A stretch of DNA of 64,000 nt from a virus. The stretch lies in IMG/VR virus record IMGVR_UViG_3300045988_126140, positions 69,599 through 133,598 of that record; one strand, given 5' to 3'. Below, one piece after another: positions 21,580 through 63,805 of the stretch (positions are counted from its first letter, which is position 1; every line of letters starts with the position of its first letter). The position numbers were made by a program, and so were the translations under genes. Below the pieces are notes generated by a model, which saw only the letters and a list, made by a program, of their open reading frames with translations, had not been told where the DNA came from and did no database searches.

Positions 21580-21617
21580 TTATTGTATTAACATAACTCA
21601 ATGATTAATTACTTATA
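21580..21617 (-). promoter_or_regulatory. class-2 bipartite promoter-like element (copy a)
   Basis: Minus strand TATAAGTAATTAAT-N9-ATGTTAATAC, with a 23-nt register (21617 to 21594), upstream of the intron ORF. Confidence 0.5.
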
Positions 21618-21739
21618 AATTATTAATTATTTTATAAACTTAGCCTTTCTTACCATGTATATCACTATACATTTGACCGATTTTACCCTATTTTAAATAT
21701 AAGCACTTATACTTTACTTATATTGAGACATATCTTTTT

Positions 21740-22407
21740 ATCTCCATATTTGATTCTAATGGATAATCTTTATATTCGGGTTTTTCTAAAAACGGAGGTT
21801 TTCTTGGATTTGTTAAGAATTGTTTTAAAACTGAATTTATTACATCTAATTTGATAAGCCTAAATTCATCTGCAACCAATACATTCCCTCTCAAGCCTCT
21901 CGCTCCATCATTAGAAGCTATAGCTGTTATTACAGAACCATTTTTAAATATACATTTAACATTATCTTTATTATTTTGAACTTTTTTAATTTCTTTTGCT
22001 AACGCAGGGTAATCCCTTCGTAAATCTTCAATCTTTTCGGTTATAATTAATCCTGCCTGGTCTTTGTTACCAGATGCAACTATTATTTTAGAACCTGGAT
22101 ATAATATTGCTCTACAACATACAAATATCGCAGTTAGAAATGACTTACCGAGACCACGTGACGCAATAAAGCAGAAACTTGTGCATATATTCATCATATA
22201 AAGTAATATTTGTTGAAACAAATATAAATTAATTCCTAACCAATCCATACAAAATCTATGTGGATTTTTTCTAAAATATTCTGTCCATATTTTTACACCA
22301 TCTAATAAATTTTCATATGAATCTTTTTTTAAGTTTTTTCTTTGTTTGCATTTTAATCTATTCTCCATATCCTTTTTCATCCTCCTCTGTATAAGGAGTT
22401 GAATCAT
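21740..22407 (-). CDS. terL: terminase large subunit, exon 1 (ATPase domain)
   Basis: Walker A SRGLGKSFLT and Walker B VLVADEF. The ORF 21718..22407 reads 7 codons into the insert and then stops. Start is ambiguous (22407, 22380 or 22368). Confidence 0.75.
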
Positions 22408-23203
22408 TATTTATTAACTTTTTAATAGGATTTAAGAAGTAACGATTTAACCACCATTTAATTCTATCCACATCATCGTATTCTTGGTGGACATCTGGAA
22501 TAGGTTCATTTTTTTCTACTTTAGCAATTAATGTACCATAACTTAAATTATCGTCTTCACCATATTTGCTCATTTTAGATGGTAAAACATTTAGTTCTTC
22601 CATACGTTTAGAAATTTGATTAGTTAAGTTTTCAAATGCTTTTTGGTCATTCTTAACTATAGCTCTTTCTCTTAAAACTTCTAACATACATATTGTTTTA
22701 ATTAAATTAACTTCTTGAATGGCTTTAGACGGATAATTATCTGTGTATTGTTCATATTTTCTTTGGAGTAATTCATACTCATCATCTTGAAATCCCTTAC
22801 CCCAAAAGTTAACAATCTCACTTGAAGTAACTGTCTCTCCAGTAATAATATTAGTTACACCATCATAAGTAAGCATATTATCTAAAGATGTTAACCCTTT
22901 AAATGCTTTATCTCTATTCATTATTCTAGTATAATTACCTAAAAAATTATTGCCATATTTCTCAACACATTTTAGATATGTTTCTTCGTCATAATACATA
23001 TCTAAAACCATACATAAATGTATAAATGCTAATCTACGGTCGTTGTTATAATTTTTTAATAACTTTTTAAAATATTTATCAACTACTTCTTTACTCATGG
23101 GTAATTTCTTATCATGCTCATAAAGCATTGATTGTGTAGAGTAGAAATCTCTAACGGTAGGTTTAAATTTACCTGTAGCTGAACATTGTTTTGTGTCTGC
23201 CAT
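22358..23203 (-). CDS. terminase small subunit, putative
   Basis: 281 aa ORF, first gene of the late operon, overlapping the terL start. Call by position. Confidence 0.5.
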   Translation of the reverse strand: MADTKQCSATGKFKPTVRDFYSTQSMLYEHDKKLPMSKEVVDKYFKKLLKNYNNDRRLAFIHLCMVLDMYYDEETYLKCVEKYGNNFLGNYTRIMNRDKAFKGLTSLDNMLTYDGVTNIITGETVTSSEIVNFWGKGFQDDEYELLQRKYEQYTDNYPSKAIQEVNLIKTICMLEVLRERAIVKNDQKAFENLTNQISKRMEELNVLPSKMSKYGEDDNLSYGTLIAKVEKNEPIPDVHQEYDDVDRIKWWLNRYFLNPIKKLINNDSTPYTEEDEKGYGE

Positions 23204-23224
23204 TATATCACTCTCCTTTAAAAT

Positions 23225-23270
23225 GAAAAAAAATGGTTACGACTAATGGAAGGAGTTTTTAGCCGTAACC
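23225..23270 (-). terminator. intrinsic terminator in the late-operon leader
   Basis: Hairpin GGTTACG..CGTAACC (23235..23270), followed on the minus strand by eight U and then directly by the SD of the terS candidate. Confidence 0.65.
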
Positions 23271-23357
23271 TAAAGGGGAGAATTTATTATGAATTTTGAG
23301 CCTTATTTTAAAGACTCAAAAAATACTGATATAATTATCAATATCATTTCAATCCTT

Positions 23358-23388
23358 AAAATAAAAATACCACTCTTATTCGAGTGGT
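23358..23388 (-). terminator. intrinsic terminator after 23397..24524
   Basis: Hairpin ACCACTC..GAGTGGT (23369..23388), then AUUUUUAUUUU. Confidence 0.7.
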
Positions 23389-23396
23389 TTAATTAA

Positions 23397-24576: not shown

Positions 24577-24584
24577 TTATTTAA

Positions 24585-25242: not shown

Positions 25243-26418
25243 TTATCGACATTTTTTACATATAGATAATAATCCTTTACTTCCGTTTTTATTAAATTTA
25301 CTCACCAATTTAACTTTGCCACACTTATTACAACGTTTATATTCTCCTTTACATATATTCAAATAATACCAATCTTCTAATTCTTCTTCATAAGCTTGTA
25401 CTATGTTTTTTACTATTGTGTCTAACATTCCTGTAATTGAAGGAAGTTTTCGATTTAATTCCTTGGCTATATTTTTAATCGTCATACCTCCCATCCATAA
25501 ATCTAAAACTTCCTTCTGTTTATCTGTAAATTTAACTTTCTTTAATACTCGTCCTAAATCGTATAAAATACAATCTATATCCGACGTGAAATCATATGCT
25601 TCAGACTCTCTATATAATTGTAATAAAGGCTTAACATGAGTGACATCTAATGTATCTAAACAATCCCATGTTACCGCCCCATTATCTTTTAATAGTTTTT
25701 TAGGTATGTATAATGGATTATATGAATTTTGAACGTATTCCATATCACTTCTCAAACTACTTTTCATGTAATCACATTTATATTTAAACCATCCTTCATT
25801 TTTATTTTGATTTAATTTTTTATTAATATTATTTTGTAACTCTTTATTTTTCTGTATTTCATTTAAGTGATTTATTAAATCTTGATAACATTGTAATTCT
25901 TCATGTTCATTTATATATTCTTTATTAATTGTTCTTTTTGGTACTAATTTAATGTTTTGAACCGATTTTAATACAATCATTGGGTCGTCTTCATTTATTT
26001 GTTCACCATATTTATGAATGTAAGATTTTTCTTTTTTCAATGCTCTTTGAAACTCTTCTTCATTATTATATATTTTTAATTTATTCTTTTTCCTATATTC
26101 TTCATCTGGCTGGAGAATATATGTACCTAAGCTTTCTAATAATTTACATACATTACTATCTGTTGCTAAATCTTCGTTTGCATTCGGTGATAAATTTATA
26201 TGACTTCTCTTCTCATTTTTTTGTTCAAATATTTCGTCCCAAAACAGTTCACCGTTTAGTTCTACCTCGTCTATGTATTTTAAATTCAACAATTCTTTTA
26301 TGTATTCAATTCTTTCTTCCACAGTTTCTAATTTATATTTATCTTTATCTATCTGATAATCAAATATTGATTTACCATTTATTTTTCCGTAAAAATTATT
26401 AAAGTATATTCGTCCCAT
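25243..26418 (-). CDS. putative transcription regulator with sigma-70 region-4-like HTH and C-terminal zinc ribbon
   Basis: ..KFTDKQKEVLDLWMGGMTIKNIAKELNRKLPSITGMLDTIVKNI.. is region-4/LuxR-like. C-terminal CNKCGK..CKKC. Lies upstream of the packaging genes, like RinA/ArpU-type late activators. Confidence 0.4.
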   Translation of the reverse strand: MGRIYFNNFYGKINGKSIFDYQIDKDKYKLETVEERIEYIKELLNLKYIDEVELNGELFWDEIFEQKNEKRSHINLSPNANEDLATDSNVCKLLESLGTYILQPDEEYRKKNKLKIYNNEEEFQRALKKEKSYIHKYGEQINEDDPMIVLKSVQNIKLVPKRTINKEYINEHEELQCYQDLINHLNEIQKNKELQNNINKKLNQNKNEGWFKYKCDYMKSSLRSDMEYVQNSYNPLYIPKKLLKDNGAVTWDCLDTLDVTHVKPLLQLYRESEAYDFTSDIDCILYDLGRVLKKVKFTDKQKEVLDLWMGGMTIKNIAKELNRKLPSITGMLDTIVKNIVQAYEEELEDWYYLNICKGEYKRCNKCGKVKLVSKFNKNGSKGLLSICKKCR

Positions 26419-26613: not shown

Positions 26614-26856
26614 TCATATCACCTCCCATTCATTTATTTTAAACACAAGCGATTCGTACATACTGTCTAAAATATATTTATCGTCTTCTATCGTTGTTAT
26701 TGCCCAATCTTCATATTCAAATTGTTCTTCTAGTTGTTTCTTTACATATCCTTTTATTTTATCTCTAGCCGTATTTTTATCTTTACAAACACATTTAATA
26801 TCTTTCTGAATTCCTTCTTCACTATAATATATTTCTATGACAATATACACTTTCAT
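26614..26856 (-). CDS. hypothetical protein
   Basis: ATG 26856 after SD TAGGAGGTG. The ORF-track TTG at 26877 is a less likely start. Confidence 0.55.
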   Translation of the reverse strand: MKVYIVIEIYYSEEGIQKDIKCVCKDKNTARDKIKGYVKKQLEEQFEYEDWAITTIEDDKYILDSMYESLVFKINEWEVI

Positions 26857-26984
26857 GTTTACACCTCCTAAATTCAATTTTAAGCAATCCTATTTCTTTA
26901 TTGAATAACTAATCCTATTTTCAATTAAAAACTCTTAGAAAAGCTCTTATTAGATATTTTAACTATATCTTGTTTAACCACCTC

Positions 26985-27030
26985 CTATATTAGTGTATTA
27001 ACATTGATGGTAGATAAATTACCTATGAAT
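26985..27030 (-). promoter_or_regulatory. class-2 bipartite promoter-like element (copy b)
   Basis: Minus strand CATAGGTAATTTAT-N9-ATGTTAATAC, register 27027 to 27004 = 23 nt. Confidence 0.5.
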
Positions 27031-27035: not shown

Positions 27036-27584
27036 TTATTCATTCTTATATACATAATAATAGAAGATATTATCTATAACGATTCCTATTAACATAAAAA
27101 TAAAACCTATATTTTGAGGTAATGTGATAATAAAACTAAAACCATAGCCAAGTATGCTAGTTATATTACAATAATAAACGGTTTTGTTATCAAATGTCTC
27201 CCTTTTTTCACCTATATATCTTCTAGATTTTAGTCTAGTTCCTCCGCATATTATATTTCTTGTTATTAAAGCACCAAGTATTCCATCCGCTATAAAATAA
27301 GTCACAGAATCAGCCAAGCCTGTCAAAAATAGAATAGTTAAAATTGTATATGCTACAGCTTCTAAGAATAATAATATTCCAAAATATTTATATAATTTTT
27401 CACTCTTAGATAACCATATTTTCGTTATTATAACTACAAAAATACAATTTAATAATGATGTAAAACTTAAAATATTTGAATTAATACTTTGTACTGTTAT
27501 CGTGTGAACTACGGGATAAGCAATACTATAAAATAAATTACTTATAGCTCCTGCAAAAAGTAATAAATCAACCTTTTTATTCAT
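27036..27584 (-). CDS. integral membrane protein (about 5-6 TM)
   Basis: Hydrophobic 182 aa ORF with an ATG start. Confidence 0.6.
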   Translation of the reverse strand: MNKKVDLLLFAGAISNLFYSIAYPVVHTITVQSINSNILSFTSLLNCIFVVIITKIWLSKSEKLYKYFGILLFLEAVAYTILTILFLTGLADSVTYFIADGILGALITRNIICGGTRLKSRRYIGEKRETFDNKTVYYCNITSILGYGFSFIITLPQNIGFIFMLIGIVIDNIFYYYVYKNE

Positions 27585-27920
27585 ATTTAACCCCCCTTCA
27601 TATAATTAAAATTATTTATAGTGTCACTCTAAGTTTACGAATGTAATGAGTAAATGAAAGAGTGTGAGGAAAGAGTTAATGTTCTTTGTTAACTCTTGAC
27701 GAATAAATACAATTCTATCCCCTAGGTAATTCATAATAATTTAAAAACTAAATTATTATTCATTCCTTCCCCTTATCAAAGGGGAATTATCTCTTTATTA
27801 ATTATTTTTACTCTTCTCTTATTTTCTAAGAAAATGAATTTTTTGTCTTTAAAATGTTGCGATTTTTTCATATTATTTTAAATGGCGTTTTTTAGTTTTG
27901 TAACCTTAATGGTAACAAAT

Positions 27921-29122: not shown

Positions 29123-29392
29123 TTATTTATCTCCTTTATTAATTTTTCTTCTAGCTATGTAATATTTGATTTTATCTATTATAACTTTTCCTAAATACCA
29201 AGATATTAACAAACAAAATGCACAAACTGTAGTCAATATTATAAATTCTATAATTTTTATGTTCATTAATAAATAAAACAAAATAAGACATGTATAAGCC
29301 GATACATAAATACTTGTAAATATTCCTATCCAACCTAAAACACCTAATAACACATATCCTATATTAAATAATATATTTTTAAATTTAATCAC
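29123..29392 (-). CDS. small membrane protein (3 TM)
   Basis: GTG start 6 nt after SD AAGGAGTGG, preceded by the 15-mer. Confidence 0.55.
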   Translation of the reverse strand: MIKFKNILFNIGYVLLGVLGWIGIFTSIYVSAYTCLILFYLLMNIKIIEFIILTTVCAFCLLISWYLGKVIIDKIKYYIARRKINKGDK

Positions 29393-29514
29393 AATACCAC
29401 TCCTTTTTATTAATTATTTTTGATAATGCTTATATTTTTTATACAATCCATATAACACTAATGTATTTTAAATGCTTTATCTTTTCTCATACATTCATGG
29501 TCTACCACCTCCTT

Positions 29515-29562
29515 TCTTATATTACTATATTAACGAAATTATATTAAAAATTACCTATGATT
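29515..29562 (-). promoter_or_regulatory. class-2 bipartite promoter-like element (copy c) with mini-ORF
   Basis: Minus strand CATAGGTAATTTTT-N9-TCGTTAATAT, register 29559 to 29536 = 23 nt. Followed by SD and ATG AAT GTA TGA (29498..29487). Confidence 0.5.
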
Positions 29563-29781
29563 TTATTTCTTTTTATTTTTAATTATAGCGTCGTGAATTA
29601 CTACTATCATTATTAGTATAATCATAGGAAGAAACATAATTCCTGTTAATGTTATTATAAAAGCTACCTCTCCAAATGCTTCACCAACTATAACTGAATA
29701 TTTTAAAGCTTTAAATAATATAAATGCAGTTATCACAGCTCCTGATAATGTTGCACTATTTTTACCAGCATATCTCCACAT
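29563..29781 (-). CDS. small membrane protein (2-3 TM; holin-like size)
   Basis: 72 aa hydrophobic ORF with SD AAGGAG, downstream of two tandem class-2 elements. Confidence 0.55.
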   Translation of the reverse strand: MWRYAGKNSATLSGAVITAFILFKALKYSVIVGEAFGEVAFIITLTGIMFLPMIILIMIVVIHDAIIKNKKK

Positions 29782-29809
29782 AATATCAACTCCTTTTTAT
29801 TTATTTCTT

Positions 29810-29852
29810 ATTTATGTATTAACATAACTGTATCAAAAATTACCTATGAATT
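29810..29852 (-). promoter_or_regulatory. class-2 bipartite promoter-like element (copy d)
   Basis: Minus strand CATAGGTAATTTTT-N9-ATGTTAATAC, register 29848 to 29825 = 23 nt. Confidence 0.55.
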
Positions 29853-29934
29853 ACAAAAAATATGTATGTCCTCCAAGATTTTTATTAAGCTTCTTTAATA
29901 CCATTACAAAAACACTCCGAATATATGTGTTATT

Positions 29935-29976
29935 TTATATAATTAACAACTAATAATGAAAAATTACCTATGAATT
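29935..29976 (-). promoter_or_regulatory. class-2 bipartite promoter-like element (copy e)
   Basis: Minus strand CATAGGTAATTTTT-N9-TTGTTAATTA, register 29972 to 29949 = 23 nt. Confidence 0.45.
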
Positions 29977-30272: not shown

Positions 30273-31229
30273 ATGAGCAAAAATCAAATACTTATGAAAA
30301 ATAATACAATAGTTAGTGCTAGATATAACATATCTCTTATGCATAATAATATATTTATTTTCATATTGTATAAACTTCAGAAAGCTAAGTCTGGTAATGC
30401 ATATTGTTATATAAGCAAACAAGAATTTCAAAATCTTATTTCAAATAAAACACAGAAAACAGTTCCAGGTATTAAAAAAGTATTAGATAATATGCTAGAT
30501 GAAAAAATATATTTTAGAGAAGATGGTGAGTGGAGCTGTAAATATAGTATTATAGCTGGGTATGAATATAATAAAAAAGAAGATTTATTTAAAATAGTTG
30601 TCATTGATAAAGTTTATCATCTTCTTATGAATTACAAAGCTTATACACCTATTAATATGAAAATATTTTTAACTTTAAAATCAATATATAGCCAAAGATT
30701 ATATGACCTTCTTAGATTATGGAGTAATACAAAAGAAAATATAACATATGAACTAGATGAATTAAAAGATTTGTTAATGCTAAATAACAAATATAATTTG
30801 TATGCTGATTTTAAAAGAAATGTTCTTCAACGAGCTAAAAAAGAATTAAATAATACTGGAATGTTTGAATTATCATATACCGAAAATAAAAAAGGACGAA
30901 GTGTAAAGTCTATAACATTTCATGTGAAAGATTTAGATAAAAGAGTATATTTTAAAAAGAAACAAACTGAACAAATTTCGCCATTGTCATACATTTCTAA
31001 TAAGGATTTAATATCAAATGATTGTATATCATCTTTTCAAAAAGATTTTGAACTAATAGATTTCACATACGAAGATATGAATCAAGCTTTTATTGAATCA
31101 ATTAATATAACATTATCTAAATTTAATGTAGATAAAATAGATTATAATGTATATCCTTACTTTAAAGCTGTGTTAAATAATAAAATTAAGTATTATACTG
31201 ACTTATTTATAAAGACAAGTATTTTTTAA
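30273..31229 (+). CDS. plasmid replication initiator (Rep_3/RepB-like)
   Basis: The N-terminus NNTIVSARYNISLMHNNIFIFILYKL fits the Rep_3 signature (from memory). 318 aa, with iterons immediately upstream. Confidence 0.6.
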   Translation: MSKNQILMKNNTIVSARYNISLMHNNIFIFILYKLQKAKSGNAYCYISKQEFQNLISNKTQKTVPGIKKVLDNMLDEKIYFREDGEWSCKYSIIAGYEYNKKEDLFKIVVIDKVYHLLMNYKAYTPINMKIFLTLKSIYSQRLYDLLRLWSNTKENITYELDELKDLLMLNNKYNLYADFKRNVLQRAKKELNNTGMFELSYTENKKGRSVKSITFHVKDLDKRVYFKKKQTEQISPLSYISNKDLISNDCISSFQKDFELIDFTYEDMNQAFIESINITLSKFNVDKIDYNVYPYFKAVLNNKIKYYTDLFIKTSIF

Positions 31230-31880: not shown

Positions 31881-32999
31881 TTATTTCTTTTTACCATACT
31901 TTTCACATATTTTAAGTACAGTCTCTCTATCAATATAGAAAGTTTGTATTTCTGTACCATATTCCTCATAGTCAAACACTCTCATATTCCCTGCTCCTCT
32001 TAATAAATGTAAATATCCATAGTTAATTATCATATTAGACCTAATTTCATCTTTACATTTACCACCTATAACGATATTTATATTTTGTTTAGTTATATTA
32101 GGTAATATATCTTTAGAAGGTAATTGGGTAGTTAGTATTAAAAATACCCCTGCCCCTGCACCTCTACTAGCTATTAAAGCTAACATATTGTGAAAATCTT
32201 TATTCTTCATATAAGAAGATAACTCTTCTATCACTATAAATCTAATAGGCATTTTTTTAAACTTTCTATATTGCCATATATCAGTACAATTTCTATAAGT
32301 AAACTGTTCATATCTTTTATCTATATCTTGTATAGCATCAAATAATATATCTTCAGCTTCATCTCTGTTTTCTGTATAATGAATTACGTTCTTACAGTTT
32401 CTAAATTCAAATAAATCTACTCTCTTTTCATTGATTAAATCTAATACAACATCACATTTTCTTTTCATTACTAATTGAGATATAATAACTCTTAAACAAT
32501 TAGATTTACCACATCTAGTAGCACCTGCTAAATACATATGTGCATTAGAAGGTTCGCTAAAATCAATATATCTAATGCTACAATCTTCTAAATTAATCCC
32601 AATAGGTATTTTATATCCTTTAGCCTTATGTTTTTCTAAATCAAAGTCAGCACATACTATCTCTTCCTTTTTAATTCTTAATTGAATATAATATCCATTC
32701 TTTTTAAAACTAACATCTTCTTTTTCTTTATTTAATAAATGACAAAACTTATTCTTATTATTACTAAAATCATCTATAGTCATTCCTACAGGTATTATAA
32801 ATTCATATATCTTATAATTTTCATCCTCCCATTTCTTTCTTAACTTAGGTATATCTCCAGAAACATTCTTCATATTGATATTATTAAAGAAATCAGTAAA
32901 ATCAATATGTTTAATATTAAATACATCTAAAACTGATTTACATAATAATGTTATTGTATCCCAAATAGTATTTGTTAAAGGTTCTATTACATTACTCAT
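31881..32999 (-). CDS. FtsK/SpoIIIE-family DNA translocase-like ATPase
   Basis: Walker A GATRCGKSN and Walker B RFIVIEEL. Its size of 372 aa matches plasmid Tra/TcpA-like proteins. Confidence 0.65.
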   Translation of the reverse strand: MSNVIEPLTNTIWDTITLLCKSVLDVFNIKHIDFTDFFNNINMKNVSGDIPKLRKKWEDENYKIYEFIIPVGMTIDDFSNNKNKFCHLLNKEKEDVSFKKNGYYIQLRIKKEEIVCADFDLEKHKAKGYKIPIGINLEDCSIRYIDFSEPSNAHMYLAGATRCGKSNCLRVIISQLVMKRKCDVVLDLINEKRVDLFEFRNCKNVIHYTENRDEAEDILFDAIQDIDKRYEQFTYRNCTDIWQYRKFKKMPIRFIVIEELSSYMKNKDFHNMLALIASRGAGAGVFLILTTQLPSKDILPNITKQNINIVIGGKCKDEIRSNMIINYGYLHLLRGAGNMRVFDYEEYGTEIQTFYIDRETVLKICEKYGKKK

Positions 33000-50398: not shown

Positions 50399-50436
50399 CA
50401 TAGGTAATTTTACTTAAAGTTATGTTAATATAATGA
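50399..50436 (+). promoter_or_regulatory. class-2 bipartite promoter-like element (copy f)
   Basis: CATAGGTAATTTTA-N9-ATGTTAATAT, register 50399 to 50422 = 23 nt. Confidence 0.5.
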
Positions 50437-50533
50437 TAACAATTAATAAAGTGGATAAAGTTTTGTTGTGTCACAATTAAAAATAACGTTACTTATCCTC
50501 TTTATTAAATTATAATATAAAGGAGGAGATATT

Positions 50534-51346
50534 ATGGGAAGAAAATCAATAAATAGAACAGGGGAGAAAGGAATTAATAATTTTGGAAGTGAGATGATAA
50601 TTGTTAATTCTTATATGAAATTCAATGATAAATATAAAAGAAATTATACTTATGTAGACGTTTATTTCCCAGAGTATAATTGGACTTTTAAAGGTGTAAG
50701 ATATGAGAGTTTCAAAAATGGTAATGTCAAATGCCCATATGAGAGAACTGTGTTTGGAATAGGTTATGTTGGCGAAGGAAAGTATAAGGTAAGTGAAAAT
50801 GGCAAAGACACTAAGAGTTATAATACTTGGCGTAATATGTTGCAAAGATGTTATAATGAAAAATGTCAAGAGAAAAATCCAACTTATAAAGGTTGTACTG
50901 TATGTGATGAGTGGCATAATTTTCAGAACTTTGCGAAATGGTATGAAGACAATTATTATGAGATAGAAGGTGAGAGAATACATTTGGACAAAGATATTTT
51001 ATGTAAAGGCAATAAAATATATACTCCAGAAACTTGTGTTTTTGTACCACAGACAATTAATATGTTATTTACTAAAAGGCAAAATGATAGAGGGGAATCA
51101 GTTATTGGAACAAGCTATCATAAAAGAGATAAAAAATATCAAGCATATTGTAGTTTAATTAATCCTAAAACTGGTAAATCTAAAGATAAATACTTGGGAT
51201 ATTATGATACAGAAATAGAAGCATTTGAGATATACAAATATTATAAAGAACGTAATATTAAACAAGTAGCTGATTATTATAGAGATTTAATACCAGAAAG
51301 ATTATACATGGCATTGTATAATTATGAAGTTGAAATTACAGACTAA
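50534..51346 (+). CDS. HNH_3-like/AP2-like homing-endonuclease-family protein, paralog 2 of 6
   Basis: Same block structure as 47333..48115, with its own SD AAGGAGG. Confidence 0.55.
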   Translation: MGRKSINRTGEKGINNFGSEMIIVNSYMKFNDKYKRNYTYVDVYFPEYNWTFKGVRYESFKNGNVKCPYERTVFGIGYVGEGKYKVSENGKDTKSYNTWRNMLQRCYNEKCQEKNPTYKGCTVCDEWHNFQNFAKWYEDNYYEIEGERIHLDKDILCKGNKIYTPETCVFVPQTINMLFTKRQNDRGESVIGTSYHKRDKKYQAYCSLINPKTGKSKDKYLGYYDTEIEAFEIYKYYKERNIKQVADYYRDLIPERLYMALYNYEVEITD

Positions 51347-52375: not shown

Positions 52376-53248
52376 ATGAAAAAAATGTGTGATAAAAAAA
52401 TTAAAATGGACAGAATGGAAAATAGAGTAAACGATTTAATTAATGAAATAGGTGAAAAAAATATAAATGAAGAAGTGATAAAAGATTTTGCTATAAAAAA
52501 TTTAAAGACAATTAATAGAAGTAGTTTCTACGATGGATTTAGAATTTTAAAAGAAGTATTAGATACAAAGGGAATTAAATACGATTTAAAAGAAGATGAA
52601 TTAATGGAAAAATGTTTATATTTTGACGAATCTAAATACTTCACAAAAACTCAAATATTAGATATAATCAATTCACTTATAAATGCACAAGACAAATTAT
52701 TAATATACATGATATTTAATAAAGTATTAGGTAAGAAATTCAAAGACCTATTAGAAATTAAGGTTTCTGACGTAGCCGAAGACTATAGTTATATAAATGT
52801 AAATGGAAATAAAATACTATGCGACGATATAATGAAAGAGTTAGTTAAAGACACAATAGAACAAGAAGTATATGTTAATACAACAAGAAGTAGAAACGTA
52901 CTTTATTATGATTTAAATATGAATAGTGAATATTTATTCAAGACATTATGTAATAGATATACCAATAATGGTTTAGAACCAATGAAACGTAGTAATTTAA
53001 GTGGAAAATTAACTGTTTTAACAAAAGAATTACAACATGGAGGATTAAATGTTACCTTAACAGCTACAGGAATATATCAGTCTGGAATCATGTATGACAT
53101 GTTTGTATTGCAAGTATTAGATAATATTATATGGACTATACAAAATACAAAGAGCTATCTTGATATAAATGGATATAATATGAATGCCAATGAATTAACC
53201 TATAAATATCACCATTTATATTATGGAACGAACTCTTCAAGAAATTAG
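52376..53248 (+). CDS. hypothetical protein (weak resemblance to a degenerate integrase-like fold)
   Basis: 290 aa ORF with SD AAGGAG. No catalytic R-H-R-Y set recognised. Confidence 0.5.
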   Translation: MKKMCDKKIKMDRMENRVNDLINEIGEKNINEEVIKDFAIKNLKTINRSSFYDGFRILKEVLDTKGIKYDLKEDELMEKCLYFDESKYFTKTQILDIINSLINAQDKLLIYMIFNKVLGKKFKDLLEIKVSDVAEDYSYINVNGNKILCDDIMKELVKDTIEQEVYVNTTRSRNVLYYDLNMNSEYLFKTLCNRYTNNGLEPMKRSNLSGKLTVLTKELQHGGLNVTLTATGIYQSGIMYDMFVLQVLDNIIWTIQNTKSYLDINGYNMNANELTYKYHHLYYGTNSSRN

Positions 53249-53275
53249 AGGTTTTTCTCTAGTTTCTTTTTTTTT
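53246..53275 (+). terminator. intrinsic terminator
   Basis: TAGAG..CTCTA, then GTTTCTTTTTTTTT. Confidence 0.55.
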
Positions 53276-53278: not shown

Positions 53279-53312
53279 TATAGGTAATTTTTCAATACTA
53301 ATTGTTAATATA
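53279..53312 (+). promoter_or_regulatory. class-2 bipartite promoter-like element (copy g) with mini-ORF
   Basis: TATAGGTAATTTTT-N9-TTGTTAATAT, register 53279 to 53302 = 23 nt. Followed by SD AAAGGAG and TTG AGT GTA GAA TAA (53340..53354). Confidence 0.45.
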
Positions 53313-53373
53313 TTAGTATAAGAAAGGAGTTGATGCAAATTGAGTGTAGAATAAAAATAATTAATAAAATCAG

Positions 53374-53463: not shown

Positions 53464-54240
53464 ATGGGAAATAAAATAGATAGAACAGGAGAAATAAATT
53501 GTAATACGTTTGGAAGTGAAATGATAATTACGGAATATAGAAGTGCAAAAGACATTGATGTTTATTTTTCAGAATATAACTGGACTTTTAAAAATGTTCG
53601 ATATAGTATTTTTAAAAATGGTAATATGAAATGTCCGTATGAAAGAAGACATTATAAAATTGGTTATTTAGGTGAAGGTGAGTATAAAATGAGTGAAAAT
53701 CGTAAACATACCAAAGTTTATAATACTTGGCATCATATGTTAGAAAGATGTTATGATAAAAAATTTCAAGAGAAACACCCCACTTACAAAGATTGTAAAA
53801 TATCTGAAGAATGGCATAACTTTCAGAATTTTGGCAATTGGTATAATGAAAATTATTATGAGGTAGAAGGCGAGATTATGTGTTTAGATAAAGACATTCT
53901 TGTTAAGCATAACAAGATATATTCACCAGATACTTGTATATTTGTACCTCAAATAATTAATACTTTATTTGTTAAAAGAGATAATGATAGAGGTGAATCA
54001 TGTATAGGTACAAGTCTTAAAGATGGAAAATATCAAGTAAGTTGTAATTTAATTAATCCTAAAACTGGAAAATCAAAAAGCGAATATTTAGGAATTTATG
54101 ATACAGAACTAGAAGCATTTGAGGTTTATAAGTATTATAAAGAAAAGAATATAAAACAAGTAGCTGATTATTATAAAGAACAAATACCATATAAACTTTA
54201 TAACGCTTTATACAAGTATAAAGTTGAAATAAATGATTAA
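53464..54240 (+). CDS. HNH_3-like/AP2-like homing-endonuclease-family protein, paralog 3 of 6
   Basis: Same block structure as the other paralogs. Confidence 0.55.
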   Translation: MGNKIDRTGEINCNTFGSEMIITEYRSAKDIDVYFSEYNWTFKNVRYSIFKNGNMKCPYERRHYKIGYLGEGEYKMSENRKHTKVYNTWHHMLERCYDKKFQEKHPTYKDCKISEEWHNFQNFGNWYNENYYEVEGEIMCLDKDILVKHNKIYSPDTCIFVPQIINTLFVKRDNDRGESCIGTSLKDGKYQVSCNLINPKTGKSKSEYLGIYDTELEAFEVYKYYKEKNIKQVADYYKEQIPYKLYNALYKYKVEIND

Positions 54241-55492: not shown

Positions 55493-56269
55493 ATGGGGAA
55501 AGTAATAGATAGAACAGGAGAAAAGAATTATAATACATTTGGAAGTAAAATGATAATAGCGAATTATAATGGATGTATGGATATTGATATATATTTCCCA
55601 AAGTATGATTGGACTTTTAAAAATGCAAAATATCAACATTTTAAAAATGGAGATATAAAATGTCCTTATGATAGAAGTATATATGGTGTTGGTTACATTG
55701 GTGAGGGTAATTATAAGGTAAGTGAAAATCGCAAACTAACTAAAGTTTATAGCACTTGGCAAAGCATGTTACAAAGATGTTATTCTGAAAAATTTCAAGA
55801 GAAACATCCTACATATATTACTTGTGAAGCATCTGAAGAATGGCATAATTTTCAAAACTTTGCTAAATGGTACAATGAGAATTACTATGAAATTGAAGGC
55901 GAAAGAATGGATTTAGATAAAGATATTTTAGTAAAGCACAATAAAATATATTCTCCAGAGACTTGTATATTTGTACCACAAACTATTAACAAATTATTTG
56001 TTAGATGCGATAGAAGTAGAGGTGAATCAGTTATAGGTACAACTCCTGTAAATGGTAAATATCAAGTAAAATGTTATTTACTTAATCCTAAAACAGGAAA
56101 ATCTAAAAATGAATATTTAGGCTATTATGATAGTCAAGAAAAAGCATTTGAGGTATACAAATACTATAAAGAAAAGAATATAAAAGAAGTCGCTGATTAT
56201 TTTAAAGATGAAATTCCAGTTAAACTTTATAACGCTTTATATTCATATGAAGTTGAAATTACAGATTAA
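55493..56269 (+). CDS. HNH_3-like/AP2-like homing-endonuclease-family protein, paralog 4 of 6
   Basis: Same blocks. 111 nt (55658..55768) are identical to 47501..47611 in paralog 1. Confidence 0.55.
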   Translation: MGKVIDRTGEKNYNTFGSKMIIANYNGCMDIDIYFPKYDWTFKNAKYQHFKNGDIKCPYDRSIYGVGYIGEGNYKVSENRKLTKVYSTWQSMLQRCYSEKFQEKHPTYITCEASEEWHNFQNFAKWYNENYYEIEGERMDLDKDILVKHNKIYSPETCIFVPQTINKLFVRCDRSRGESVIGTTPVNGKYQVKCYLLNPKTGKSKNEYLGYYDSQEKAFEVYKYYKEKNIKEVADYFKDEIPVKLYNALYSYEVEITD

Positions 56270-57121: not shown

Positions 57122-57904
57122 ATGAGTGAAAAAACAATAGGTAGAACAGGTGAAACAGCTTATAATAAATTTGGAAGCGAGATGATAATTATTGATTATA
57201 AAGGATGTATGGACGTAGATGTTTATTTTCCAGAATATAATTGGACCTTTAAAAATGCACATTATAGTAGTTTTAAAAAAGGAAATATTAAATGCCCTTA
57301 TGAGAGGAGATATTATGAAGTTGGATATTTAGGAGAAGGAAAATATAAAGTAAGTGAAAATGGTAAACATACCAAAGTTTACCAAACATGGCACGATATG
57401 TTGAGAAGATGCTATGACGAAAAAAGTCTTAAAAGAAATCCTACTTATATAGGCTGTAAGGTAGATAAAGAGTTTCATAATTTTCAAGAATATGGAGAAT
57501 GGAGCGAAGATAACTATTATGAAATAAAAGAAGAAAAGATGTGTCTTGACAAAGACATATTAGTTAAACATAATAAAATCTACTCACCAGAAACCTGTAT
57601 ATTTGTACCGCAAAGAATAAATACTTTATTTACAAAAAGAGATAGTAAAAGAGGAAATAATCCAATAGGTGTTTCAGATTATATAAATGGTAAGTATGTA
57701 GCACAATGTCATATAATTAATCCCGAAACAGGAAAATCAAAATATGAATGTTTAGGTGTTTATGAAACTCAACTTAAAGCTTTTGAGGTGTATAAAGAAT
57801 TTAAAGAGAAAAATATCAGACAAGTAGCTGACTATTACTTTGGTTTAATCCCTAACAAACTATACAATACTTTATATAATTATGAAGTTGAGATAACAGA
57901 TTAA
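57122..57904 (+). CDS. HNH_3-like/AP2-like homing-endonuclease-family protein, paralog 5 of 6
   Basis: Same blocks. 65 nt (57239..57303) are identical to 63936..64000 in paralog 6. Confidence 0.55.
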   Translation: MSEKTIGRTGETAYNKFGSEMIIIDYKGCMDVDVYFPEYNWTFKNAHYSSFKKGNIKCPYERRYYEVGYLGEGKYKVSENGKHTKVYQTWHDMLRRCYDEKSLKRNPTYIGCKVDKEFHNFQEYGEWSEDNYYEIKEEKMCLDKDILVKHNKIYSPETCIFVPQRINTLFTKRDSKRGNNPIGVSDYINGKYVAQCHIINPETGKSKYECLGVYETQLKAFEVYKEFKEKNIRQVADYYFGLIPNKLYNTLYNYEVEITD

Positions 57905-57933
57905 AAATAATTAATAAAATTTATTAGAAGGTA

Positions 57934-57962
57934 TTGACTTTCTAGTAAATACTTTATATAAT
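57934..57962 (+). promoter_or_regulatory. sigma-A-type promoter
   Basis: TTGACT-17-TATAAT, upstream of the first sigma gene. Confidence 0.7.
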
Positions 57963-57995: not shown

Positions 57996-58586
57996 ATGAA
58001 AGAAAAAATTTCAAATGAACAAGGAAGATTGATGATAAAAATAACAAAGGGGATATGGAATAAACGATTTAAAACATTCTCTCTATTTAAAGACGATATG
58101 CAATCATATGCTTATATGCAAATGTGTAGTGCTATAAAAAGATATGATGAAAGCAAAAATGTTTCATTAAATACTTATCTCAATGCTATTGCATGGAAGA
58201 GCATGACAAAATATGTGAGAGACTTTGTATATAAAAATAAAGGTAAAGTTATTTCTGCTGAAGGAATATATACAATGAATGATACATCACTGGATTGTAG
58301 AAAGGAATATAATAAAATAATTAGTCATTTTCTTAAGGAAGATATCAACTATGAAAATATTGAAAAACAAGAGTTTATAGATAAATTTAATAATATAGTT
58401 GAAGAGAGAAATAAACATACGAGCCGAAAAATAAATTTAGATGAACTACATTTCATAATTAATAAACTATATGAAGGTTACAATAAATGCGAAATCAGCA
58501 AAATGTTAGGAGTAAGTAGTACAAATGTTAATAAAAAAGTAAATAGAATAAGAGATATAATTACAGAAATAAAAAATAATGAATAA
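57996..58586 (+). CDS. sigma-70-family sigma factor (small, ECF/group-5 size), paralog 1
   Basis: Region-2-like ..YDESKNVSLNTYLNAIAWKSMTKYVRD.. and region-4 HTH ..CEISKMLGVSSTNVNKKVNRIRDII.. 196 aa. Confidence 0.65.
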   Translation: MKEKISNEQGRLMIKITKGIWNKRFKTFSLFKDDMQSYAYMQMCSAIKRYDESKNVSLNTYLNAIAWKSMTKYVRDFVYKNKGKVISAEGIYTMNDTSLDCRKEYNKIISHFLKEDINYENIEKQEFIDKFNNIVEERNKHTSRKINLDELHFIINKLYEGYNKCEISKMLGVSSTNVNKKVNRIRDIITEIKNNE

Positions 58587-58591: not shown

Positions 58592-58621
58592 TTGGCAAAG
58601 ATAGTTTGGTTATGTTGTACT
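58592..58621 (+). promoter_or_regulatory. weak sigma-A-type promoter
   Basis: TTGGCA-18-TGTACT. Confidence 0.35.
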
Positions 58622-58651
58622 TAATATATAAAATAAAGAGAGGTGATAAAT

Positions 58652-58858
58652 ATGAAAACATTAAAATTAACAGACCAAGAGCTAGAAACGTTAATATTGA
58701 TATTGAGTGAAGCTAAAGTATGTCTATCTGGTTGTATTGTTGAAGAATATCAAGACGAAGATTTTGATTGCGAGGATTGTCCATTTGAGCAAAGTAAATG
58801 GGATATTTGGGAAAAACTAATGGAGATTAACTGTGAAGACGACCCAGCTTATAAATAA
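58652..58858 (+). CDS. hypothetical Cys-containing acidic protein
   Basis: ATG 58652 after AGAGGTG. 68 aa. The stop abuts the 15-mer. Confidence 0.6.
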   Translation: MKTLKLTDQELETLILILSEAKVCLSGCIVEEYQDEDFDCEDCPFEQSKWDIWEKLMEINCEDDPAYK

Positions 58859-58897
58859 AAATAATTAATAAACTAATGGATAATAGGGGGATAAGTT

Positions 58898-59470
58898 ATG
58901 AATAAAACAATGATAAGTGATACAGAATATATAAATTTATCTTTAGAATTAACAGGAAAAATTTACAACAAAAATTATAATGGGTTTTCTTCTATTAAAG
59001 AGGATATGATTCAACATTCGTTACTGGAACTTTGGAAATCTAGAAATAAATTTGATGAGTCTAAAGGGGATATTAAAAAATTTATTTGTGCAATTATATA
59101 CAATTCATACAATGTATATTTAAGAAACACTTATTATAAAGATAAAGATATGCTTACATCTATGGATGTTAATATATCTGACGATGGAAAAGAAGAGACT
59201 ACTCTATTAGATACCATAGGAAAAATAGATTTGAAATATAAAGATATTGAATATATGGAATTATTAAAAGAATTTGATGATGTAATTGCAATGCGTAATT
59301 TGGGGAAATACAATAAGATTAATGCAGAAGAATTACATATAATCATGAATATGTTGATGGATGGATACAAACAAAATGAAATATCTAAAACATTAAATGT
59401 AAGCAGTGTGACAATTAATAAAAAAATTAATTTAATCAAGGACGTAATAAAAGAAATTAAAAATAACTAA
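58898..59470 (+). CDS. sigma-70-family sigma factor (small), paralog 2
   Basis: Collinear with 57996..58586 (..FDESKGDIKKFICAIIYNSYNVYLRN.. / ..NEISKTLNVSSVTINKKINLIKDVI..). 190 aa. Confidence 0.65.
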   Translation: MNKTMISDTEYINLSLELTGKIYNKNYNGFSSIKEDMIQHSLLELWKSRNKFDESKGDIKKFICAIIYNSYNVYLRNTYYKDKDMLTSMDVNISDDGKEETTLLDTIGKIDLKYKDIEYMELLKEFDDVIAMRNLGKYNKINAEELHIIMNMLMDGYKQNEISKTLNVSSVTINKKINLIKDVIKEIKNN

Positions 59471-60461: not shown

Positions 60462-60489
60462 AAATAATTAATAAAAGGAGAGATGAATT

Positions 60490-61448: not shown

Positions 61449-61670
61449 GCGTAAATTGAAGTGAAACTGAAAATTTACTCTATAATAATCTATAATAATA
61501 TCTATAAGTACTCTATAATAACATCGCACTTTTATATGGTGGTGGGTGGAATTTAGGTAGGGTAAAAATGGAAAAAAGTAATAGCTGAATGGTAAAATTT
61601 GCCTAACTGTTGAAATTACTAGCTTTAAGGAATATAATTAAAAATAATTAATAAAATAGGAGGAGATATT

Positions 61671-62369
61671 ATGAATGAATTAATGTTATTTGATTTTGAA
61701 GGGAATAAAGTAGATATTATAATAAATGATAATGGAGAACCTTTATTTGAAATATATAGTACTGGTATGGCATTAGGGCATGTGAAATATAATTCTATTG
61801 GTAAAGCTTACCCAAGAAAAGAAAGAATAGATAAAGATATTAGAAATGCAGAAATTAAAGTTTGTGTCCAAGCTGGACACAATTATATAACAGAAGAACA
61901 ACTTTATGATTTTATGTTAGAATGTAAAACTGAGAAGTGTAAACCATTTAGAAGATGGGTAACTCATGAAGTATTACCATCATTAAGAAAGACAGGTAAA
62001 TATGAAATACAAACGGATAGTGAATTACCTCAATTACTCAATGATATGACACAATTAGTTGAAGATATGAAATATAGAATTGAAAAACAAAATAAACAAA
62101 TCAATGAACAAAATAAACAAATAGAAGAAATAAAACATTTAGTTGGTATAAGAGCAAAAGATGTATTTGATTACGGTAAAATAATTAAAGAACATTTAGG
62201 TATTAGTAAAGTTAATAAAGATTATAATATTATAAAAGAAATGTTTTTCTATGAAGTCGGAGTATCTAAATGGGAAGATTTAAATTATTCCAGAAATAAC
62301 GTGAAATTATTAATTGATATTTGTAATGATTACAAGCCAAGTATTCAAATCAATATGTTTGAGGATTAA
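61671..62369 (+). CDS. BRO-N-family antirepressor-like protein
   Basis: ..CKPFRRWVTHEVLPSLRKTGKYE.. is the Bro-N signature. Coiled-coil centre. Confidence 0.65.
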   Translation: MNELMLFDFEGNKVDIIINDNGEPLFEIYSTGMALGHVKYNSIGKAYPRKERIDKDIRNAEIKVCVQAGHNYITEEQLYDFMLECKTEKCKPFRRWVTHEVLPSLRKTGKYEIQTDSELPQLLNDMTQLVEDMKYRIEKQNKQINEQNKQIEEIKHLVGIRAKDVFDYGKIIKEHLGISKVNKDYNIIKEMFFYEVGVSKWEDLNYSRNNVKLLIDICNDYKPSIQINMFED

Positions 62370-62539
62370 TTACTCCTTTAACTAATGCAGAACCCCTTAA
62401 ACAAGCATTTACAAGATATTTTGGATATTTCAATAAGAGTAGAGACCAGCTTATATAAATAAAAATTTTACAATATTTGTGAAGATATGTAACATATTTT
62501 TTGTAAATACATAATATATATTAAAAAGGGGTTGATATT

Positions 62540-63445
62540 ATGAATAAAAATACAAGTGTAGCGATAGATATAGGCAATATCACATCTATTGGTGTGTCAA
62601 ATGAAAAAGAAGTTGTTATCGAATCAAGAATTAAAGAGCTTGAAGTAGGTATAGATGACTTTAACCTAAATGAAAATTTTGAATGTGATGGAATTAAATA
62701 TATATCTAACAGTGGTAAATTTGAAAATGATTTATTGAAGTTTAATAAAGAAAACTATCTTCCATTATTATATTATTCAATATCTAAATCAACAGAATCT
62801 AATTTAATTAATTTAATAACTGCTATACCTGCTAGTCAATATAAGAAAAAGGAAGAAATGAAAAACTTTATAGAAAAAAATAATAAGAAAACTTTAATTG
62901 TAGACGGAAAATTAAGAACAATAACGATTAACAGAGTGGAAATATTACCAGAATCATATGCGATTAAAACAATAAAATCTTTAATGAACAAAATAAATAG
63001 AAATACTGATACAATAGTGGTTGATATTGGTGGTGGAACTGTCGATATATCAAATTTTGATAACAATATGAATCTTAAAAATGCAAATTCTATAGCAATG
63101 GGCTTGATAAACATATATCAAAATACTAGAGAATATTTAAATATAACTTATGATTTAAATATGAGCTTAGAAGAAGCTAAAAGAATATTTGATGGAGAAC
63201 AACAATTATTAAATGGTAAATCTGATTATAAACCAGAAATAGTGAAACGATTTATAAGAGCTTTAGTGAATGAAATAAGAGGTTTATATCCTAATTTAAA
63301 AAACAGTAACATAATTCTTGTAGGTGGTGGTAGTAATATATTATATCCCACTTTTTCTAAATTATATCCACAAACGATAATGAACGATGAGGTTAAACTT
63401 CAATGTCAAGGGTTGTTTAATATAGCAGAAAAATTATTTAAATAA
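62540..63445 (+). CDS. parM: ParM/StbA-like actin-type plasmid segregation ATPase
   Basis: Actin-fold phosphate motifs AIDIGNITSIG, VVDIGGGTVDIS and ILVGGGS. 301 aa. Confidence 0.7.
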   Translation: MNKNTSVAIDIGNITSIGVSNEKEVVIESRIKELEVGIDDFNLNENFECDGIKYISNSGKFENDLLKFNKENYLPLLYYSISKSTESNLINLITAIPASQYKKKEEMKNFIEKNNKKTLIVDGKLRTITINRVEILPESYAIKTIKSLMNKINRNTDTIVVDIGGGTVDISNFDNNMNLKNANSIAMGLINIYQNTREYLNITYDLNMSLEEAKRIFDGEQQLLNGKSDYKPEIVKRFIRALVNEIRGLYPNLKNSNIILVGGGSNILYPTFSKLYPQTIMNDEVKLQCQGLFNIAEKLFK

Positions 63446-63458
63446 GTAGGTGATAATC

Positions 63459-63707
63459 ATGGCAAAGACGATTAGAGAGGTTAGGTTAACTTTTAATGAA
63501 AAAGATAAAGATATATCTGAATGGTTAAAAGGAAAATCAAGTCAAACAGCTTATATTAAAGACATTCTTCGATTACACATGCAGATTGAACAGTCGTATT
63601 TAGCTAATAGTGTAAATGTAGAGCAAAGTGTTTCACGTGAAACTGTAAAGGTGGAAGAAAAGAAACAAGATGAGTTTGACTTCTCATTAGATGATTTGGG
63701 CTTATAA
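63459..63707 (+). CDS. parR: ParR-like (ribbon-helix-helix) adaptor, putative
   Basis: 82 aa. N-terminal beta-strand/helix pattern AKTIREVRLTFNEKDKDISEWLK. Immediately downstream of parM. ATG 63459. Confidence 0.45.
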   Translation: MAKTIREVRLTFNEKDKDISEWLKGKSSQTAYIKDILRLHMQIEQSYLANSVNVEQSVSRETVKVEEKKQDEFDFSLDDLGL

Positions 63708-63765
63708 AGAGGGGTTAATTTCCCCTCTAATTTTTTAAAGGAGATTTAAATAATAAAATAATAAT

Positions 63766-63805
63766 CATAGGTAATTTTTATAAAGTTTATGTTAATACAG
63801 TAATA
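63766..63805 (+). promoter_or_regulatory. class-2 bipartite promoter-like element (copy h)
   Basis: CATAGGTAATTTTT-N9-ATGTTAATAC, register 63766 to 63789 = 23 nt, then SD and ATG 63822. Confidence 0.55.

Follow-up and report, generated by a model that had tools for sequence, protein, structure and literature searches.

The question raised by this locus is what purpose is served by the eight copies of a two-box motif lying between its genes, and which protein reads them. The locus is a stretch of 64,000 nucleotides (nt) of viral DNA (positions 69,599 to 133,598 of the IMG/VR record IMGVR_UViG_3300045988_126140), here called the window. The copies are very probably promoters. The fuller explanation, that they are phage-specific "middle" promoters operating within a sigma cascade, is probable as a whole, and the best candidate for their reader is the small sigma-like protein sigma 2 (58898..59470, plus strand), a likely rather than an assured choice. 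We infer initiation at the sites, the sigma that reads them, the position of the start and the timing from sequence comparison.

The eight window copies, referred to as class 2, give the consensus TAATTCATAGGTAATTTTT-N10-TGTTAATA(C/T)A.TAATATAA. The columns occupied by G hold about 2.7 bits of information, and those of the 10-nt spacer about 0.2-0.5 bit. Box 1 can be written as (C/T)ATAGGTAATTT in 8/8 copies, GTTAAT is present in 8/8, and the conserved box extends upstream to TAATT in five of the eight. Copy a deviates in box 1, where A stands for G and then AA for TT, so that it reads TATAAGTAATTAAT. The original prediction had listed these copies, and extraction of the sequences and their clean alignment bear out its coordinates for all eight; its second box, GTTAATA in every copy, does not hold, as copy e has GTTAATT. 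Copies d, e and f have a clearly weaker version of a further box downstream of box 2 (box 3). Two other assignments of the boxes were rejected. With box 2 as the -35 element and box 3 as the -10 element the spacing would be 3-4 nt, and as a sigma-A -10 element box 3 is poor in these three copies and has no conserved -35 element at the right distance.

Searched as ATARGTAATT-N14-GTTAAT, the motif has eight exact matches in the window. With up to two mismatches 12 are found against 1.36 expected, a number reached in none of 100 shuffles. A 39-nt weight matrix, a check proposed with the original prediction and run on both strands of the window, gives the eight copies 36-48 bits (23-42 bits upon leaving each one out), while no other site exceeds 8 bits; the top score of 30 dinucleotide shuffles was 22.7 bits. 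The motif family is discrete, without a degenerate tail. Box 1 alone (TA[GA]GTAATT) occurs 12 times in the window, with GTTAAT in register at exactly the eight listed copies.

The spacing of the boxes, earlier claimed to be an invariant 23 nt, is the same in 8/8 window copies and holds beyond them. Among the unique TAGGTAATT sites of related contigs, GTTAAT follows at offset 23 in 111; the two exceptions, one each at 24 and 22, are both T-run slippage variants in orthologues of promoter e (loci L024 and L063). One-base variants of box 2 (GTTAAC, GATAAT, ATTAAT, GCTAAT) preserve the register in these contigs. Across 143 unique instances from the related contigs the flanks of the boxes are conserved and the spacer is unconstrained. 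Because the copies of the GGTAAT form (2a) have conserved boxes and a free spacer, they point to a bipartite protein-binding site under selection and not to recent copying. A two-domain sigma whose linker is short imposes rigidity of this kind. In the literature the motif string was matched only by primer sequences.

Non-coding DNA makes up 22% of the window. All eight copies lie wholly within it and, in agreement with the earlier claim that they are read with local transcription, all are sense-oriented. For random placement this is estimated at (0.22 x 0.5)^8, or about 2e-8.

The motif and the small sigma genes share their distribution. The motif recurs in low-G+C human-gut contigs of about 133-140 kb in IMG/VR, with at least 6-13 copies each in the parts covered, and homologues of the sigmas were found only on contigs of this motif-bearing phage family. 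When 185,579 species, each represented by one genome, were scanned for the exact pattern, seven stretches were returned, of which the genuine ones are two short phage contigs of a single metagenome-assembled genome (MAG) and the rest are chance matches. This MAG is labelled uncultured Firmicutes, which is as far as the host could be narrowed down. As the exact motif is genuine only in one phage-bearing MAG, it is not a host regulon. The C. difficile phage phiCD211 shares the G+C content and a syntenic late module that includes a 391-residue regulator; it has no small sigma (hmmsearch, E <= 10) and no motif, with a best matrix score of 11.5 bits and zero relaxed-pattern matches.

The second sigma slot of the family is occupied by two alleles. 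Allele A, with the region 4.2 sequence LNVSSVTINxKINLIK, is present in the window, where it reads LNVSSVTINKKINLIK, and in 11 contigs. Allele B (P0073), with KKGCTKNCIHKKVKRIQ, is found in contigs 123101 and 135797 and in a Logan contig (SRR6451667_1004); contig 123101 also has a frameshifted copy of allele A without its helix-turn-helix (HTH). The relaxed pattern GGTBANTTT-N11-TGTTAATA gave mostly chance matches in IMG/VR, and about a dozen matches from the family defined a second promoter form, 2b (GGTGAY). In allele-B genomes this form reads AATAAAGGTGAYTTTT-AAGTTGTTnA-TGTTAATATATAAGTATAA, with the register and box 2 as in 2a. The box-1 variant AAAGGTGAYTTTT in place of GGTAAT occurs in one allele-B genome and in one contig without an assigned sigma.

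Pooled allele-A genomes hold at least 114 sites of form 2a and at least three of form 2b, and pooled allele-B genomes at least seven of each (Fisher p = 3e-6). Individually, contig 123101 has at least two 2a and at least five 2b sites, contig 135797 at least five and at least one (GGTGAT), and the Logan contig none in the sequence covered and at least one; contig 108657, to which no sigma is assigned, has none in the sequence covered and at least three. Orthologous operons that carry 2a in allele-A genomes carry 2b at a nearly equal distance from the start codon in 123101 and 108657, their proteins being an AAA_24 protein (93% identical), a 117-residue protein (88%) and a 358-residue protein (90%). 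Two controls behave differently from sigma 2. The region-4.2 alleles I and II of sigma 1 (VSSTNVNKKVNRIR and CSQNTVKKKIHRMR) are very different and both occur with unchanged 2a. The same is true of two alleles of the 391-residue regulator that are about 45% identical and have different HTH recognition helices; this second control uses alleles within allele-A genomes, retrieval from allele-B genomes having yielded close relatives only. Box 1 thus appears to track the region-4.2 allele of sigma 2, with no such link to the alleles of sigma 1 or of the 391-residue protein. The earlier proposal of a promoter class that depends on a sigma other than sigma-A is supported by this tracking, by the co-occurrence of motif and sigma genes and by their joint absence from phiCD211.

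It can tentatively be suggested, with somewhat more doubt than confidence, that the family contains two mutually replacing sigma/promoter pairs, allele A with CATAGGTAATTT and allele B with AATAAAGGTGAYTTTT, which have the same -10 element and register. Contig 123101 would then have been caught in the middle of a switch, with a frameshifted A, an intact B and mostly converted promoters at orthologous operons. If true, there has been a genome-wide concerted exchange of the sigma helix reading the -35 element and of promoter cassettes within one virus lineage, and the 2a and 2b pairs would be ready orthogonal sigma/promoter parts for low-G+C Firmicutes such as clostridia.

Several observations weigh against the proposed cascade or against sigma 2 as the reader. 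The fragments of relatives came from pattern scans, and the site counts are biased lower bounds. Contig 135797, which has allele B and lacks allele A in 20 kb around the sigma genes, still has five GGTAAT sites against one GGTGAT, and three GGTGAT sites occur in allele-A genomes. Since the 2b sites share their spacers, the change has the look of cassette replacement, which is weaker than point covariation. The scores of the small proteins against sigma families lie at or just under the curated cut-offs. No other promoter class turned up for sigma 1, which could be the true or a joint reader. The structural genes have no class-2 copy, so that the extension of the cascade to late genes is conjecture.

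Sigma 1 (57996..58586, plus strand) has 196 residues and sigma 2 has 190. The claim that the element encodes two paralogous small sigma factors was confirmed in that both are sigma-70-family-like and 36% identical to each other. They score 22.4 and 23.7 bits against Pfam Sigma70_r2 (cut-off 24) and 38.7 and 39.0 bits against TIGR02937 (cut-off 42.9), and residues 127-183 of sigma 2 score 21.5 bits against Sigma70_ECF (cut-off 21.1). PHROG sigma families match the small sigmas with E = 3.5e-7 to 6.5e-12, and their HTH aligns with region 4.2 of real sigmas. An AlphaFold2 model, with a predicted local distance difference test score of 75, places helices at residues 8-79 and 104-189, with residues 83-115 disordered. 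The 50 Foldseek matches listed from the PDB are all sigma factors or RNA-polymerase transcription complexes, mostly of the extracytoplasmic function (ECF) type, and are weak (E >= 9e-3). The predicted fold is ECF-like: a linker joins a sigma-2 bundle to a sigma-4 domain, and a sigma-3 domain is lacking.

With a profile of 16 homologues the best PDB sequence match is 3mzy ("sigma-H"; 6e-5). In a full HMMER scan of 1.84 billion representatives about six clusters fall below 1e-29, followed by generic ECF-like proteins near 1e-13; the sigmas form a small isolated clade. No match was found upon tblastn of sigma 2 against GenBank phages or of sigma 1 against PLSDB plasmids, and a search with sigma 2 of one genome per species found nothing.

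Both sigmas seem to be early products, because conserved sigma-A-type promoters stand ahead of both genes. That before sigma 1 (57934..57962, plus strand; TTGACT-17-TATAAT) is conserved in relatives. That before an open reading frame (ORF) at 58643-58858 and sigma 2 (58592..58627, plus strand, end approximate) has degenerated to TTGGCA ... TGTACT in the window, whereas most relatives have the canonical TTGACA ... TATACT. Near-perfect sigma-A-type promoters (TTGACA-17/18-TATAAT) number about 22 on the plus-strand arm of the window (35788-61638) and none on the minus-strand arm; another factor must therefore start the minus arm.

The following course of events is proposed. Host RNA polymerase with sigma-A would first transcribe the plus-strand early arm, including the two small sigma genes. 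One phage sigma, most likely sigma 2, would then displace sigma-A from the host core enzyme. Its region 4.2 would read box 1 (aTAGGTAATTT) as the equivalent of a -35 element, and its region 2 would read box 2 (tGTTAATA), rigidly spaced from box 1, as the equivalent of a -10 element. Transcription would start a few bases further downstream, within the semi-conserved TAATATAA, so that the leader ahead of the ribosome-binding site would be very short. The class would turn on replication and recombination genes, homing-endonuclease cassettes, small membrane proteins and the operon of the 391-residue regulator, which in turn would be a likely activator of the structural genes.

Other explanations accommodate part of these data. 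There is a small but appreciable probability that sigma 1, or both paralogs, reads the sites. Sigma 1, with a perfect sigma-A-type promoter ahead of its gene, is also early, its region 4 hardly differs between the window and the distant relative L138, and the five GGTAAT sites retained in the allele-B genome 135797 would be accounted for. However, both of its region-4.2 alleles accompany the same GGTAAT box, and L138 and 123101 have the window-like allele I, yet the GGTGAY variant. It is unlikely that the sites are sigma-A promoters with a weak extended -10 element (TRTG-n-TAATAY), assisted by a phage activator at box 1 such as the 391-residue protein. To be sure, TATGTTAATAT fits TRTGnTAATAT, the -10-like hexamer retains T-12 and A-11, and this element and phiCD211-type phages both encode a conserved regulator that has a GerE-like HTH. 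In five of the eight window copies, however, the hexamer is TAATAC, with C where the essential T-7 would be; no TTGACA-like box stands in register, whereas the true sigma-A-type promoters of the window are near-perfect; and within the TG the G is the better conserved base, CG standing in copy c and in a site of 135797. Alleles of the 391-residue protein with different recognition helices accompany an identical box 1, its gene lies downstream of copy b, so that another source of first expression would be needed, and phiCD211 has the regulator without the motif. That the sites are not promoters, and are instead a cassette spread by homing endonucleases or recombination, an operator or an RNA-level signal, is improbable. 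Four of the eight copies precede HNH genes, copy a moves with an intron HNH cassette, the 2b variants share even the spacer, as copied cassettes would, and copies b, c and g are followed by a sequence like a Shine-Dalgarno (SD) site and then by no ORF or a mini-ORF. Against this, only the boxes are conserved in 2a copies, the sites in relatives lie at a fixed short distance before unrelated essential genes such as that of DNA polymerase III alpha, and strict sense orientation, positions after terminators and a place at the head of a divergent arm fit initiation sites.

The regulon of a host alternative sigma, exploited by the phage, is scarcely credible as an explanation. The consensus of sigma-H promoters is RWAGGAXXT-14-HGAAT; ATAGGTAAT fits six of the seven specified -35 positions, box 2 has a G at spacing 14, and the best PDB and Foldseek matches of the small sigmas include proteins named sigma-H. 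On the other side are the rarity of the exact motif outside phage contigs in the species-genome scan, a -10 element that reads TGTTAAT and not HGAAT, the lack of a sigma-H-specific NCBIfam match and a box-1 variant that follows the allele of a phage gene, not the host. Very improbable, too, is the kinship with clostridial TcdR/BotR/TetR/UviA (group 5) sigmas and their promoters that the original prediction had suggested. Promoters of this group have TTTACA at -35 and, at -10, GTTATA (Pp47) or GTTAAT (the BotR-dependent PorfX1) (PMC4031146); TTTACA is also given in PMC5311115. The group-5 consensus of the original prediction was roughly right, with TAG-TTTACA standing beside real family genes, and it is the relatedness that fails, box 1 after its TAG sharing two of seven bases. 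Upon alignment of the boxes with the published consensus, the -10 GTTAAT is found here, whereas AGGTAAT takes the place of TTTACA at -35; the GTTAAT match is weak evidence because it comprises only six AT-rich bases. The group is marked by an SRQ motif in region 4.2 (PMC4031146). Five real family members were compared, namely a C. difficile TcdR-like protein, P. sordellii TcsR and UviA-like proteins of C. perfringens, C. tetani and C. argentinense. All five have [IVC]SRQ, while the window sigmas align there with VSSTNV and VSSVTI, and so have SST and SSV in place of SRQ. The best BLASTP similarity of the window sigmas to group-5 members covers 31 HTH residues (E = 7e-4 to 1e-3), with no significant full-length similarity, and the tblastn searches that gave no match for sigma 1 in PLSDB or sigma 2 among GenBank phages contrast with 35 plasmid records for a TcdR-like query. 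What the two groups have in common is that both are small two-domain sigmas of similar size on clostridial or clostridial-like mobile elements of low G+C content, with a -10 element beginning GTTA. A tempting link to clostridial toxin regulators, unsupported by these comparisons, is thereby removed.

With the sites read as phage-specific promoters, their positions can be followed along the two arms. Copies d and e form a tandem pair at the head of the minus-strand arm, in the divergent region beside the Rep_3 gene, with c and b next. Copy d (29806..29848, minus strand; 48.4 bits), the proximal one, lies 42 nt upstream of 29563-29781, which encodes a 72-residue membrane peptide, and is conserved in nine relatives. 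The distal copy e (29930..29972, minus strand; 36.2 bits) is the weakest, with its altered box 2 and a poor box 3. Copy c (29517..29559, minus strand; 36.6 bits) starts 4 nt past the stop codon of 29563-29781; 3' of it are an SD site and a three-codon mini-ORF, then a membrane-protein gene (29123-29392) and the gene of a 399-residue phrog_2467 protein. Copy b (26985..27027, minus strand; 44.4 bits), 9 nt past the stop codon of 27036-27584, heads a small ORF (26614-26877) followed by the genes of the 391-residue regulator and an HU-like protein, an exonuclease gene lying beyond a terminator. Copy a (21575..21617, minus strand; 38.7 bits), which reads TATAAGTAATTAAT-N-ATGTTAATACAATAATATAA, is inside the terL intron, 34 nt 5' of the intron HNH ORF.

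On the plus strand, copy f (50399..50441; 45.2 bits) starts 9 nt past the tyrosine-recombinase gene, so that b, c and f all begin 4-9 nt after a stop codon, and precedes HNH paralog 2. Copies g and h start 10-40 nt past terminator-like hairpins with T-runs. The hairpin at 53239..53268 (plus strand) is immediately upstream of copy g (53279..53321; 37.0 bits), after which come an SD site and a mini-ORF, then a sigma-A-type promoter (TTGACA-17-TATACT) and HNH paralog 3. The hairpin at 63708..63728 (plus strand), the terminator of the ParM-like operon, is conserved in relatives and immediately upstream of copy h (63766..63808; 40.1 bits), itself 29 nt upstream of HNH paralog 6; relatives retain this promoter and have a different downstream sequence and gene. 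Following copies c and g (29490-29516 and 53322-53360) there is a good SD site and only mini-ORFs of 3-14 codons, and copy b has an SD-like GGAGGTGG without a start codon. These may be remnants of displaced genes or leader peptides.

The downstream features named for the window in the original prediction stand, except at copy g, where the mini-ORF is correct and the first real gene downstream is HNH paralog 3, which has its own promoter. The biology was understated, since in relatives the class appears to drive replication and recombination genes. The motif is found there 55-60 nt before DNA polymerase III alpha (PHP and DNA_pol3_alpha domains). It also stands ahead of an HNH gene that has a DnaB-like helicase after it, of a small ORF with an AAA_24 protein after it, and of an ANT/ORF6N antirepressor and pentapeptide-repeat proteins. 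The class looks middle (replication-stage) and not structural-late.

The further region-4-containing regulator that had been claimed is the 391-residue sigma/LuxR-like protein (25243..26418, minus strand; phrog_5767, E = 2.5e-73), which does have a region-4/GerE-like HTH and belongs to the unit headed by copy b. Its gene is syntenic with that of the phiCD211 "sigma factor", just before the genes of an HU-like protein, exonuclease, terminase and portal. The alleles of this protein (25243-26418 and loci L048, L081, L046 and L079) are about 45% identical, against about 90% for the rest of the late regions around them, a contrast suggesting that the regulator underwent allelic replacement inside a conserved module. 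No class-2 copy was found ahead of the structural genes, and upstream of 22358-23203 there are hairpins and no recognizable promoter. At 23204-23396 (minus strand) a terminator-like hairpin is followed by two more, with GGTTACGGCT...AGTCGTAACC and then a T-run; late genes could be subject to antitermination or attenuation at this point. That the 391-residue protein is the late activator of the structural genes is a conjecture.

The terL gene is interrupted by a mobile, group-I-intron-like insertion of 1,416 nt (20324..21739, minus strand) that contains an HNH ORF (20578-21558) and copy a. It is absent from relatives L017, L081 and L079, which are 98-99% identical here, and L017 has an intact TerL of 595 residues across the junction. 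The window junctions fit the group-I rule, in which the 5' exon ends in U and the intron in G. Searches of Rfam with the whole window, and more sensitively with 12.6-22.5 kb, found no family, so that the intron class is a candidate only. In relative L007 the intron is present without 20662-21616, the HNH ORF and copy a, showing that promoter, SD site and HNH gene are a separate cassette lodged in the intron. Six further HNH paralogs are located at 47333-48115, 50534-51346, 53464-54240, 55493-56269, 57122-57904 and 63820-64000 (cut); the five complete ones are 61-77% identical. Their upstream signals vary, being class-2, sigma-A-type or only the gene-boundary motif described below. If the sites are promoters as proposed, homing-endonuclease cassettes plug into a phage-specific promoter class.

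The window has a G+C content of 26%. Its minus-strand arm (1-30 kb) carries tail, head, portal and terminase genes, upstream of which are those of the exonuclease, the HU-like protein and the 391-residue protein. The plus-strand arm (about 35.7-64 kb) carries small genes, a Dam methylase, an antirepressor, a XerC/D-like tyrosine recombinase (49488-50390, plus strand), the six HNH paralogs, the two small sigma-like genes, a Bro-N protein and a ParM/Alp7A-like actin (62540-63445, plus strand). A Rep_3 initiator (30273-31229, plus strand) lies between the two arms, and an FtsK/SpoIIIE-like ATPase is encoded at 31881-32999 (minus strand). With this plasmid-type maintenance set the element is probably a phage-plasmid, temperate-looking. 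A near-identity search with 50-60 kb against GenBank phages found no close relative, only an HNH fragment being matched. IMG/VR has many close relatives (70-93% nucleotide identity) as contigs of 133-140 kb, most of which come from a single human-gut data set, and the nearest cultured relatives found are the C. difficile phages phiCD211, phiCDIF1296T and LIBA (about 131-134 kb), with 30-35% identity in the portal and the 391-residue regulator.

Many of the plus-arm sigma-A-type promoters share a spacer/extended -10 motif, AAATGATAGTATATAAT, and the set is unusually dense and uniform. A possible third promoter class, TTGGCAAWGATAG, was rejected because it is the -35 region and conserved spacer of these ordinary promoters, and a 9-mer enrichment screen yielded nothing beyond the known motifs. 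Between two structural-gene ORFs, 13289-13882 (minus strand) is a non-coding stretch of 594 nt that by eye is richer in G+C and structured-looking, with no Rfam match; it could be a second intron, without an ORF. The inverted repeat GTTCGCAATTTAAAAATATTGCG(AAC) is repeated at about 5895-5926 and about 3130-3165 (minus strand), after two tail-region genes, and could be a terminator or a regulator site.

A separate motif, AAATAATTAATAAA, is a putative gene-boundary signal. Allowing one mismatch, it has 61 sites in the window against about three expected, every copy being sense to local transcription; examples are at 57905-57918, 58859-58872 and 60462-60475 on the plus strand and at 29406-29419, 27794-27807 and 9448-9461 on the minus strand. 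It usually starts between -12 and +57 nt from the stop codon of the upstream gene, and the next start codon follows after 4-26 nt or, where a sigma-A-type promoter intervenes, after 55-125 nt. Relative L138 has 18 sense and no antisense copies in 20 kb, and phiCD211 has none.

Parts of this arrangement are familiar from known systems. In phage T4, intron and free-standing homing-endonuclease genes have their own middle or late promoters. The likeness to I-TevI in the td intron is that an HNH ORF inside an intron comes with a phage-class promoter and a ribosome-binding site of its own; the nuclease family and the promoter type differ here, and the intron class rests on splice-site bases, with no Rfam match. 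The Bacillus phage SPO1 uses a cascade in which sigma-A serves early genes, gp28 middle genes and gp33/34 late genes. The present element resembles it in its strong host-type early promoters, an early phage sigma proposed for middle genes, a candidate late regulator in the middle class and a Firmicute host. No homologue of SPO1 gp28 or gp34 was found, and the promoters differ in sequence. The present element also looks like a temperate phage-plasmid (Rep_3, ParM-like protein, tyrosine recombinase), and its late step is conjecture. Phages phiCD211 and phiCDIF1296T (about 131 kb, G+C content 26%) have portals 30-33% identical and 391-residue regulators 31-35% identical to those of the window, with the genes for regulator, HU, exonuclease, terminase and portal in synteny; they lack small sigma genes, the class-2 motif and the AAATAATTAATAAA motif.

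The closest functional analogue appears to be the sigma factor gp47 of phage 7-11, for which eight bipartite promoters, GTAAtg-16-aCTA, have been proven experimentally (PMC8948821). There too a divergent ECF-like phage sigma acts with host core RNA polymerase on eight conserved bipartite non-early promoters, the early genes being left to the host sigma (PMC8948821), and GTAAtg resembles the box-1 core GTAAT. By comparison, gp36 of phiEco32 recognises a single box, tAATGTAtA, and starts lie 6-8 nt downstream (PMC8948821). Both phages are podoviruses of unrelated hosts (Salmonella and E. coli), and the likeness claimed is functional, proven there and predicted here. Unlike 7-11, the element has two paralogous sigmas and a third sigma-like regulator, and its class appears to be middle, not late. 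The phage sigma and the promoter sequence are newly described, while the kind of system, a phage-sigma strategy, is already known. If correct, the scheme provides a sequence-level transcription programme for an abundant, uncultured human-gut phage-plasmid family of about 135 kb, names which protein should read which boxes and predicts the effect of swapping one helix.

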